NCBI RefSeq assembly: GCF_964204645.1
Contig: NC_134026.1
Span: 5,975,950-6,039,949 of the forward strand
DNA: 64,000 bases
DNA from: Tubulanus polymorphus
Taxonomy: Eukaryota > Animalia > Nemertea
Direction of reading: 5' to 3'
Part shown: piece by piece, positions 54,224 to 57,931 of the stretch
How positions within the stretch are numbered: position 1 is the first letter of the stretch
Layout of the letters: every line of letters begins with the position of its first letter
Made by a program: the position numbers and the translations under genes
The notes under the pieces: model-generated
Databases searched by the model: none
Seen by the model: only the letters and a program-made list of their open reading frames with translations
Told to the model about the DNA's origin: nothing

Positions 54224-54577
54224 TCAAGCTGAAAGCTTTTTCTGTCCTGCGTCATAAACGATGGTCGGTGGTCTAGATTCGCGACGTCCATCTCGCCGGC
54301 AATAATAGTTACTACTTAATTTATGCGAAACGCCATCCGGCAGAATTGGAAGAGGTTGAGTCCTTTTCGCCATCGACTGCTCAAAACGTTGATGATCTTT
54401 CAGTGTTCTCTGAAAACCAAATTTGTACAATAAAGTATATTTAAATTGGAATTGAAAAAATGGCAAGCGTTTTCCATCGTTATTGCGTCCAAATACTCAA
54501 TTTACCTGATTCAGAAAGTTTCTTAATTTCATCATGAGCGGGGTGAGCTGCCTGGTTGCACCAGATGTCGATGCCAT
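54224..54577 (-). CDS. NDUFA7: NADH:ubiquinone oxidoreductase subunit A7 (B14.5a), 85 aa; coding exons 54577-54506 and 54409-54224
   Basis: [72 protein letters not shown] matches the family motif. Confidence 0.93.
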
Positions 54578-54900
54578 GGTATTTTCCTACACAAACAGAT
54601 GAAAAATCGAAAAATCTATGGAAAAAGTACACGAAATGTAACGACCGCTTCACAAATTCAAATTCAATTACTTCCTTTATTCGCCAATTTCCCAATTCGT
54701 TTACTTCGCAAGGCGATGGATTTAGGGTCGAGATAGAATCTATTTACTTTTGTCTGGGATATAGAATAAGATAGAAATCAGCGATTCCATGACTATAACC
54801 CAGTAGCAGCGATCCAACATGTTTTGGGTGTAGCTTAATACAGTAGGCCTTATAGTCAATAACGTGTGTGTGGTTTAGTTTCACGATCGGATATTTTCAC

Positions 54901-55150
54901 ATAAGCCCATTCCATTATAAAAAGTTTACCACCAACGATTAGGTAACTAAGTAGGCCTATGACTATGTATCATGGGTCAAATTCAATCTCAAGAAAATGA
55001 ATCATTATTCTTCCAATCCATAGAGAGAATACTGCCCTGAGAAAGTTGATCATAAAAAATTAATTTCTAAGTAAAGTCCTTTCATCCAATGAGTCGTTCG
55101 TGCTGTGGCTGAGTGTAGCAATATCATCAGGTTCGAATCCCTACCGAGAG
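54901..55150 (+). repeat. Dispersed bipartite repeat with tRNA-like A and B boxes; second copy at about 46365-46552
   Basis: Shared block TAAGCCCAT.CCATTATAAAAAG.TTACCACCAACGATTAGGTAACTAA, plus TGTGGCTGAG.GT...CATCAGGTT.GAATC. Confidence 0.7.
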
Positions 55151-55219
55151 GATGCCAACAATATAAGAAAAACGGTGATTCACAGGGTTTGAGGGTAAAA
55201 TATTGAAAATCAAATAAGA

Positions 55220-55356
55220 AATCTTGTTAGAATTTTTTTTTATTTACATCATTGAAATTCAAGCAAATAAAGATATTTCCTCAAGTGAAAAGTACAATTT
55301 CAAGATGTGGTTTTCTAATCTTTTTTACTATCATCGCCGAGAGAAGGCACAAAATC
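55220..55356 (-). other. RPS28: Probable non-coding terminal (3'UTR) exon of RPS28
   Basis: Minus-strand acceptor TTTGTTCTTTCAG ends at 55357. AATAAA at 55244-55239 is followed by U-rich sequence. Confidence 0.65.
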
Positions 55357-55720
55357 CTGAAAGAACAAACCAAAGAGATAAAAACAAGTATATAACCAGG
55401 GTCTAGCTTCACGAAAAAGTTCAAGCCTAAAACGGTGAAGCTTGAATTGTTGTCCTCATTTAAAACATGAAGTAACCAATGGCAATTACACCAAAAATTT
55501 GAGTTTAACTTTTTCATGAAACCGGGCCCAGGGGTTAGGTGGGGCATTGTTCCCCAGATCTAGGCTTGGCTGATACAGTGTTCATAGAAAATAATTTTTC
55601 AAATCAGTTGATAACCGATATTTTCGGCCTAAGTCAATTCATACCTATTTCCACCAATCTGAGTAAAAAATTGAATCAAAATTTCAAAATATATTTTATG
55701 GATGGTCGAGATTATACCTG

Positions 55721-57891
55721 TTATCTTAATCTTCTTGCTTCTCTTTCTGACTCGAGCAATGTCAAGATGTCGCCCTCACGAACGGGTCCTTTCACATTTC
55801 GGATAATCGATCGGTTGCTGTCGTCCAAGAATTCGACGCGAACCTGGAATTGCGGAGAAAAGCCGATTTAATGAAGAGTTCAGTCATTGGAACGATATCT
55901 TAATTCATCCCAGGCGATCTATTTACCTGTGTACATTGTCCTTGGGACCCAGTACGTCCCAGAAGTTTTGTGACCTACAAAGTACAAGTACAATTCCATT
56001 TCTTATATCACTTATACAGTCAGTAGTAGTATTAGTAATGCTGCCACCTGATCAGTCAGGAACACTTTCCAAAAACGGCTTATTCTGCCAATTTCGGCGT
56101 TTTCCGCCAATAACGGCAGAATCAGCCATTTATGGATTACTCAGTTTTAAACTGCTTCTGCCAATTTAGCCAAAATCGGCGTTTTCTGCCATTTTTGGCT
56201 TGTTCTTAAAAAACGCCATTTCCGCCGTTTTCAGCTGTTACAGTTTTTAAAACTACATCGCCAGAAACGGCGTTTTTAGCTTAGATAGTTTTACAGGTGC
56301 TATTTATAATGCTTAGTTCGATGGGAGTCCCTATTATGACATCATCGCTTTTCTGCTGGCATACATTTGTATATTTGCGCCGAAAAATTAATCTCATTGA
56401 TCCATTCCAGGCTTCAAGAAAGAATCAAATATAAATGTATGGGTTTCCGATGGCAAATGTATTTGAATTCTGTTCTTTCTGTATACCTGTATTCTATGTA
56501 ATAAATATATACATACATGTATCCCAAATTGTTTCGAAAATGTCTGTTTTATTTTGAAATGAATCTAGATACAGCTGTATTGATTTTGAGTGTTGTAACG
56601 TCATCGGCCACCAATTCATTCAATCACTACCCATCACAAGTCCAATTAGCTGGGAGGCATCGAAGATGTTAATTGCCTTCAATTAACCAACATCATATGC
56701 AGTCCAATATATCCCTCAACCATTCTATGCTTTATTAGGCAAGATAAGACCATGGGCAAAACTTAAAACTAGATTTTTGATACACTAGTTTATACATGAT
56801 CCATGATTGATTTGTCTTATGAGAATGATAATTATAATAATTATTTTATCTTTATTATATAATATTTACACATCCGTTCACCTCAGCAAATTAATTATTT
56901 TATTCCGAAAAAAAGTACCGTGTAGACACTAGGGAAAACGTCTAAGCGGGTGGGGGAATCCTCTTATATAACAAGTGGACTGCCAATAATGGCTTAATAG
57001 TTTATGATTATAAAACTAGCTACGCCAAAAACGGCAGAATACGCCAGAAATGGCGAATGTTTTTATGTGTACCCATGGCAACGTTTAATTGAAAACTTTA
57101 TAATAGTTTTTAAAACTAGTTCCCAAATTTATTTTTAACAAAAATCATGATTAATAAACTTGTTTCATGCTGTAGTAGTTTTGAGAGTTTTCCCGGAGTT
57201 TTTGGGCTGCATATGACGTAATCATTTAGAAAAACGTGAATTTGACCACTTTACCTAGCTCAAAAATTTCCATCCTAGCGTCATATGAAAGCTTATCGTC
57301 TGCTCGAGATTATGACGTAATCGGCAACATGCGCTAATTTGACCGGAAGTGCGCAAAAAACTTTAAAGCAAAACTCGAAACTTAGTGAGCTGAAACTGGC
57401 TGATTAAGCCATAAACGACTGTAAAAGTTTCAAAACTGAGTGATCCATAAACGGCTGATTCTGCCGTTATTGGCGGAAAACGCCGAAATTGGCAGAATAA
57501 GCCGTTTTTGGAAAGTGTTCCTGACTGCTGATTCAGATTGAATTAATTTCGACTAAAATACAATCTGTAAAAACCATCAAATTATTACGCGGAAAGCCCA
57601 TTACACTTTGCAGGATATTTCTATATTTTTACTTTTTTAATACACAAAACAGCACATCCGGGCTATGCTTGGAGGCCTAAGTTGCCGAGTGAAACAAGTG
57701 CTGCCATCTACGTCGGACAGAACAGTTTCTTTTCAACGCATTAATCCATAAAATATGCGCTTTAAAACAGCTTAATTTACTGATTGACGTCTACCTTAAA
57801 ATATTAACCTTACGAAAATATCCCAGAATTGAGATTCTACGCGTTATTAGATACTTACACGGGCTAATTTAACTGGTTGAAATTTATCCAT
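55721..57891 (-). CDS. RPS28: 40S ribosomal protein S28 (eS28), 67 aa; exons 57891-57859, 55974-55927, 55843-55721
   Basis: [67 protein letters not shown]. Confidence 0.98.
56053..57527. mobile_element. 1475-bp non-autonomous DNA transposon (hAT5-like) in RPS28 intron 1
   Basis: Near-perfect TIRs of about 95 bp starting CAGTCAGGAACACTTTCC. 5-bp TSD CTGAT at 56048-56052 and 57528-57532. No long internal ORF. Confidence 0.92.
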
Positions 57892-57918
57892 GCTGCACGC
57901 GATGTCGCTGCTTTTAAC

Positions 57919-57931
57919 GAGAAGAGGAAGA
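57919..57931 (-). promoter_or_regulatory. TCT initiator / 5'TOP tract of RPS28
   Basis: Minus strand TCTTCCTCTTCTC about 30-40 nt upstream of the ATG, typical of ribosomal protein genes. Confidence 0.8.

Follow-up and report, generated by a model that had tools for sequence, protein, structure and literature searches.

RPS28 and NDUFA7 joined by splicing in the nemertean Tubulanus polymorphus: a likely shared transcription unit

Two-gene messenger RNAs (mRNAs) make up 2.5% of fly gene models in the survey of PMC4528330, according to which the 5′ gene of a dicistronic locus is usually made monocistronic by an upstream polyadenylation (poly(A)) site. In loci that are only polycistronic the survey gives a stop-to-start distance of -34 to 319 nucleotides (nt), and a Drosophila supplement lists RpL7-like with an alternative poly(A) end. 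In human cells, near neighbours on one strand are described as frequently joined by read-through splicing (PMC4450057), and eight ribosomal-protein genes of C. elegans are reported to yield unproductive spliced mRNAs (PMC4937301). Here we compare with these systems a stretch of 64,000 nt from Tubulanus polymorphus (NC_134026.1, positions 5,975,950 to 6,039,949; the window, in whose numbering all coordinates are given), where the ribosomal-protein gene RPS28 and the complex I gene NDUFA7 lie in tandem on the minus strand.

In this locus splicing links RPS28 exon 4 to the initial coding exon of NDUFA7. The donor in use overlaps an AATAAA, and an out-of-frame spacer of 121 nt is left between the two reading frames. 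The two genes likely share one promoter and one mRNA. On balance we lean towards a single transcription unit that yields either an RPS28-only or a two-gene mRNA, depending on whether poly(A) cleavage or splicing prevails at a site over which the two compete. A literature search, mostly of titles and the beginnings of abstracts, turned up no evident paper on a joined RPS28-NDUFA7 transcript.

The spliced joint between RPS28 and NDUFA7

The expression evidence comes from four runs of one study (X1 to X4), mapped as contigs onto 53550-58150 only; 32 contig pieces were listed, with 2,595 further, and 24 loose ends, with 377 further. None of the runs is on record as RNA, and X4 is taken as RNA because all GT-AG joints among those listed are found in X4 only. 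GT-AG ends occur in 4 of the 10 joints listed, corresponding to RPS28 intron 2, RPS28 intron 3, NDUFA7 intron 1 and an intron of 661 nt from 55247 to 54587. No splice joints were seen in X2 or X3, both of which were left out of the expression evidence. Since none of the three other runs carries the X4 joints, a processed DNA copy does not account for them.

A single X4 contig of 542 nt (depth 4227.8) runs from RPS28 exon 3 through exon 4 into NDUFA7 exons 1 and 2. Its joints (55717/55357, 55247/54587 and 54505/54410) all have GT-AG ends, with 80-89 letters on the short side, and its length is the sum 88+109+81+264, that is, 88 nt from the end of RPS28 exon 3, the whole of exon 4 and both NDUFA7 exons. 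The contig thus carries all of NDUFA7 together with the end of the RPS28 coding sequence, a contig not being the same as a single molecule. Four depth bins were checked across exon 4 and NDUFA7; there this contig alone accounts for the X4 depth, so it represents the only upstream link of NDUFA7 shown by X4. The first-pass annotation had proposed that the two genes form one spliced unit with an in-frame direct junction. The exons are indeed joined in cis, and the link runs through donor 55247 instead of that junction. Every site and frame listed there was found on rechecking the coordinates, all on the minus strand.

The RPS28 protein has 67 amino acids (aa) in three coding exons, the third of which matches PF01200 (E 2.6e-20). 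Exon 1 (57859..57930), whose start site is predicted, carries 11 codons in its coding part (57891-57859) and opens with a pyrimidine run of 12 nt (57930-57919), which we take to be like a terminal oligopyrimidine (TOP) or TCT motif. It is followed by exon 2 (55927..55974, 48 nt; X4 joint 55841/55925, depth 25015) and exon 3 (55718..55843; X4 joint 55355/55717), which holds the stop codon at 55723-55721 and ends at donor 55717. Exon 4 (55248..55356, 109 nt) is internal in the joined form and predicted to be terminal where the AATAAA is used, as in a composite exon. This signal (55244-55239) occupies intron positions +4 to +9 after donor 55247, so that both elements fit into 55239..55247, and it is followed by U-rich sequence; its use for cleavage is our prediction, whereas the donor is used in the spliced X4 contig. 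Acceptor 55357 and the signal had been noticed before, while the internal donor had been missed.

The joining intron (54587..55247, 661 nt, GT-AG) contains repeats, a second AATAAA and three unused candidate donors (54863, 54747 and 54671). The second AATAAA, at 54681-54676 on the minus strand, lies five bases before the last of these and may serve read-through RNA as a reserve poly(A) signal. NDUFA7 begins with a coding exon of 81 nt (54506..54586), whose ATG at 54577 stands in a strong context nine bases after acceptor 54587, and ends with exon 54146..54409, which holds the stop (54226-54224) and an AATAAA (54157-54152); the X4 contig ends at 54146. The protein of 85 aa matches PF07347 (E 8.4e-28), and RPS28 and NDUFA7 are therefore conserved, non-overlapping reading frames in tandem on one strand. 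On the 95-position Pfam model NDUFA7 aligns to positions 1-71 only, and the other 38 aligned sequences run past its stop, which is unchanged in X1 and X4 contigs. A third exon near 54000 was considered since the protein ends early, and inspection by eye found no fitting donor before the stop. An Rfam search of 50000-60000 gave no match, and none of five folded RNA stretches was unusual (z 0.30 to 1.11).

Trans-splicing is not needed to explain the NDUFA7 mRNA. A trans-spliced leader had been named earlier as an outcome that would speak against a shared unit, and the X4 join to NDUFA7, at 54586, is in cis and not to a leader, though a short leader could drop from contigs. Our literature searches (listings, a term search and passages of the sources found) gave no report of spliced leaders in nemerteans, and a supposed report of leaders in a nemertean was not confirmed by the term search (0 matches).

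Could NDUFA7 come mainly from the direct junctions, with the exon 4 form secondary? Joining 55718 to 54586 would give the proposed in-frame spacer of 12 nt, an arithmetic that we rechecked, and both forms that skip from RPS28 exon 1 or 2 to 54586 are open in frame. All three lack a spacer AUG and would be cleaner for reinitiation, and a low-depth link beside the contig of depth 25015 could be pruned by the assembler. Fly gene pairs with a common first exon and start codon provide a precedent (PMC4528330). Against this, none of the three predicted junctions (55718>54586, 55927>54586 and 57859>54586) is among the 10 joints listed for the contigs, an absence that does not refute them, the obligatory joint between RPS28 exons 1 and 2 being likewise missing from X4 contigs. 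The suggested N-terminal extension derived from eS28 found no counterpart: an eS28 piece occurs in 0 of 150 NDUFA7 relatives (150 of 296 matches covered), PF01200 in 0 of 5 longer proteins (227-2000 aa only, a range that misses the expected fusion size), and a scan of prokaryote genomes gave nothing. The public model of NDUFA7 from this species also has 85 aa and no extension. The phase-0 donors of RPS28 are present as described, but they are not tuned to NDUFA7. Two coral-like loci with NDUFA7 on the other strand have the same phase-0 intron positions, so the phases are ancestral, and the in-frame property of the direct junction would arise by chance in one case out of three. Taken together, we regard the direct forms as an unlikely main source.

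Gene order in other animals

RPS28 and NDUFA7 are linked in vertebrates (PMC4904190), and among ancient gene pairs head-to-head is given as the commonest and best-kept order (PMC3514665). A scan of metagenome contigs yielded 17 NDUFA7 loci, two of which (L007 and L009, both coral-like) have RPS28 beside NDUFA7, in both cases head-to-head with 307-308 nt between the starts. The two loci share about 81% identity; in the NDUFA7 exon they reach 83-85% identity with members of a Pocillopora/Stylophora cluster, and their RPS28 pieces match a scleractinian protein. Similarly, the scleractinian eS28 CAH3156883.1 adjoins the accession of Pocillopora meandrina NDUFA7, CAH3156886.1. The human pair is head-to-head as well. 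RPS28 was not found in the other 15 of the 17 loci: three (L004, L005 and L012) have 0.8-1.9 kb upstream free of RPS28, L010 extends 6 kb upstream of the matched exon, with its first exon not located, and the remaining loci are short or unresolved. In L001, L002, L004 and L005, most of the length of NDUFA7 aligns in one unbroken stretch, compared to the multi-exon genes of L007 and L009. Among other nemerteans, an NDUFA7 is annotated in Lineus.

The head-to-head order in both coral-like loci indicates that the tandem order of Tubulanus polymorphus is probably derived, and the opposite orientation makes it likely that an old gene pair was rewired by inversion. NDUFA7 is not a retrocopy, as its first coding intron is kept at the position seen in L007 and L009. 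Inverting RPS28 together with its promoter would place it upstream of NDUFA7, as observed, whereas inverting NDUFA7 alone would give the opposite order. An inversion that carried RPS28 and its promoter out of the ancestral pair can leave NDUFA7 promoterless.

Translation, alternatives and surroundings

The joined mRNA measures 700 nt from 57930. Its spacer of 121 nt, in frame +1, contains three AUGs, two of which are created in tandem at the new junction, out of frame and 14 and 11 nt before the NDUFA7 start, where they open an out-of-frame open reading frame (ORF) over that start. A predicted ORF of 17 codons in exon 4 (55281..55334) is in the NDUFA7 frame; in the joined mRNA its end lies 42 nt ahead of the NDUFA7 ATG. 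Read-through of the RPS28 stop, one of the routes considered earlier, cannot give a fusion from the observed form, since the spacer is out of frame; only the unobserved direct joint would allow it. Leaky scanning would go with a weak first start and few AUGs, but the RPS28 ATG at 57891 has a strong context (A at -3, G at +4) and six AUGs lie upstream of the NDUFA7 start. Reinitiation appears to be the remaining simple route to NDUFA7 from this mRNA.

We therefore picture the unit as follows. At 55247-55239, U1 and the cleavage factors would compete; cleavage would give a common RPS28-only mRNA and splicing the two-gene mRNA of 700 nt. NDUFA7, lying second on this minority mRNA, would be transcribed from the RPS28 promoter, and ribosomes that reinitiate downstream of either RPS28 or the spacer ORF of 17 codons would translate it. 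A low yield of NDUFA7 might be enough, provided that ribosomes far outnumber complex I. The depth of NDUFA7 is at most 0.25 of that of RPS28 exons 2-3 if contig depth is a plain mean, and the ratio comes to about 0.06 with an average of 10,000 for the RPS28 part, values to be read with the limit that contig depth cannot rank genes. This bound is a weak hint against an mRNA that is always joined, and, rough as it is, it is compatible with additional use of the exon 4 poly(A) site, of which the contigs hold no 3′ end. Stretches without X4 cover (54628-54781, RPS28 exon 1 and the predicted RPS28-only 3′ end) were not counted as absence.

Several observations weigh against this picture. The support comes from one run and one sample, as contigs only, and a two-gene contig shows no single transcript. 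No RPS28-only 3′ end was seen in the X4 contigs. Donor 55247 agrees with the consensus at 6 of 9 positions, equal to three unused candidates. Six upstream AUGs and the strong context of the RPS28 start make a poor layout for NDUFA7 translation. Exon junctions fall 3, 112 and 193 nt past the RPS28 stop, and under the exon-junction rule, which is not known for nemerteans, those at 112 and 193 nt would mark the mRNA for decay; decay of the joined mRNA is thus possible. No second tandem RPS28-NDUFA7 case appeared among the 17 loci. The pair also looks unlinked in four of the five other species with both accessions: in Bulinus, Dimorphilus, Helobdella and Capitella these are far apart or on contigs of unequal length, an indirect measure in which paralogues are possible. 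Finally, short ends drop out of X4 contigs, as RPS28 exon 1 (depth 0) illustrates, and a short private first exon of NDUFA7 may be hidden in the same way.

This last point leads to the alternative that NDUFA7 has its own promoter with a short first exon (for example, with donor 54671 and an intron of 85 nt) or an unspliced leader. The joint would then be minor read-through out of a very abundant neighbour and might represent a by-product that is destined for decay and tunes RPS28; the locus would be a case of ordinary read-through. Candidate donors 54747 and 54671 score 6/9, as does the donor in use, an intron of 85 nt resembles nearby ones of 83 and 96 nt, and an unproductive product would agree with the large number of upstream AUGs. 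The frequency of human read-through splicing (PMC4450057) and the unproductive mRNAs of the eight C. elegans ribosomal-protein genes (PMC4937301) add precedents. However, the X4 contig continues unbroken past 54586 and joins across the region where a private exon would sit. The joint also differs from the commonest read-through pattern, which links the second-to-last exon to the second exon and would here be 55718>54586 (PMC4450057), and the gene order is what would be expected from an inversion that carried the promoter away. We consider an own promoter possible, with doubts.

In a further alternative, NDUFA7 transcription would start at a promoter inside RPS28, within intron 3 or exon 4, so that the end of exon 4 would serve NDUFA7 as its own non-coding first exon and the exon would be common, but not the promoter. 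The contig cannot place the joints 55717/55357 and 55247/54587 on one molecule, and shared non-coding exons are common in flies (PMC4528330). On the other side, the AUGs created at the junction would lie ahead of the NDUFA7 start in this case too, and 55000-55700 is CpG-poor, with an observed-to-expected ratio of about 0.4-0.7 compared to 1.6 at the RPS28 start. The latter is a weak argument: this genome shows no CpG depletion (median ratio of 0.98 in the window), so CpG does not mark promoters here, and its profile gave no promoter call. We judge an internal promoter very improbable.

Intron 1 of RPS28 harbours a terminal-inverted-repeat element of 1480 bp (56048..57527) with arms of 99 nt that are 97% complementary. 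It is present in the window and skipped in one X1 DNA contig (joint 56047/57528), and is therefore a polymorphic insertion. Downstream of NDUFA7, a HINT3-like gene on the minus strand has two tandem look-alike exons (52310-52184 and 52136-52004) that carry the histidine-triad region and both match PF11969. At 127 and 133 nt both are 3n+1 in length, with an intron of 47 nt between them, and they are a candidate mutually exclusive pair whose alternative use would exchange the active site. We also considered, and dropped, a connection running from NDUFA7 into HINT3; the X4 HINT3 piece ends at 53743 with no joint listed among the reads placed on 53550-58150. Cysteine-rich exons at about 61150-62220 (plus strand) reach 23.0 bits for the CFC domain, just below the Pfam cut-off of 23.2, and probably belong to an EGF-CFC (Cripto-like) gene divergent from RPS28. 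ORF pieces between about 2300 and 47000 resemble, by names that we assign from their translations, CAD (plus), RMC1 (minus), MRPL55 (plus), RAD51C (plus) and TBL2 (minus).

Relation to described systems

In its fullest form our proposal is that a single inversion of a head-to-head pair older than the split of corals and vertebrates produced one unit, in which a promoterless NDUFA7 is reinitiated from a TOP-type mRNA and its dose is set by competition between U1 and cleavage over nine overlapping bases. This sequence of events we put forward only tentatively. If true, it would trace a route from a shared promoter to an operon-like mRNA in an animal group for which no trans-splicing is reported, and would tie a complex I subunit to ribosome synthesis. 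If NDUFA7 is without another promoter, the locus suggests that a ribosomal and a complex I gene stayed co-expressed while the underlying mechanism changed, and it allows reinitiation to be tested behind an ORF of 67 codons with a strong start. Nine bases, which can be mutated in a minigene, would decide which of the two mRNAs is made.

Two-gene mRNAs are a kind already known in animals; what is added here is a likely history together with a compact switch. As in Drosophila dicistronic loci, two unrelated small genes lie on one spliced mRNA, the gap of 121 nt is within the fly range, and the 5′ gene is predicted to be made monocistronic by an upstream poly(A) site; here, in contrast, donor and AATAAA overlap, a TOP-type ribosomal-protein gene comes first, and contigs stand in place of a full-length cDNA (PMC4528330). 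The supplements searched of that survey, all except file 1, contain no entry under the fly symbols RpS28 or ND-B14. Green-algal bicistrons likewise keep two intact ORFs on one mRNA without trans-splicing, but they combine a weak first start with few upstream AUGs and leaky scanning, compared to the strong start and six AUGs found here (PMC11291117). Human cis-SAGe, the splicing in cis of neighbouring genes, shares the same-strand neighbours, short distance, active 5′ gene and exact exon-exon joint, whereas the joint in Tubulanus polymorphus starts inside the last exon instead of the second-to-last and leaves both reading frames intact (PMC4450057). The locus resembles composite terminal/internal exons, and the suppression of nearby poly(A) sites by U1, in having a poly(A) signal just inside the intron, and differs in that the choice decides on the inclusion of a second, unrelated gene (PMC4227790). 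With ancient head-to-head microsyntenic pairs (PMC3514665) it has in common the linkage in vertebrates and the head-to-head order with a short gap in the coral-like loci, and it departs from them in the tandem orientation of its own two genes.

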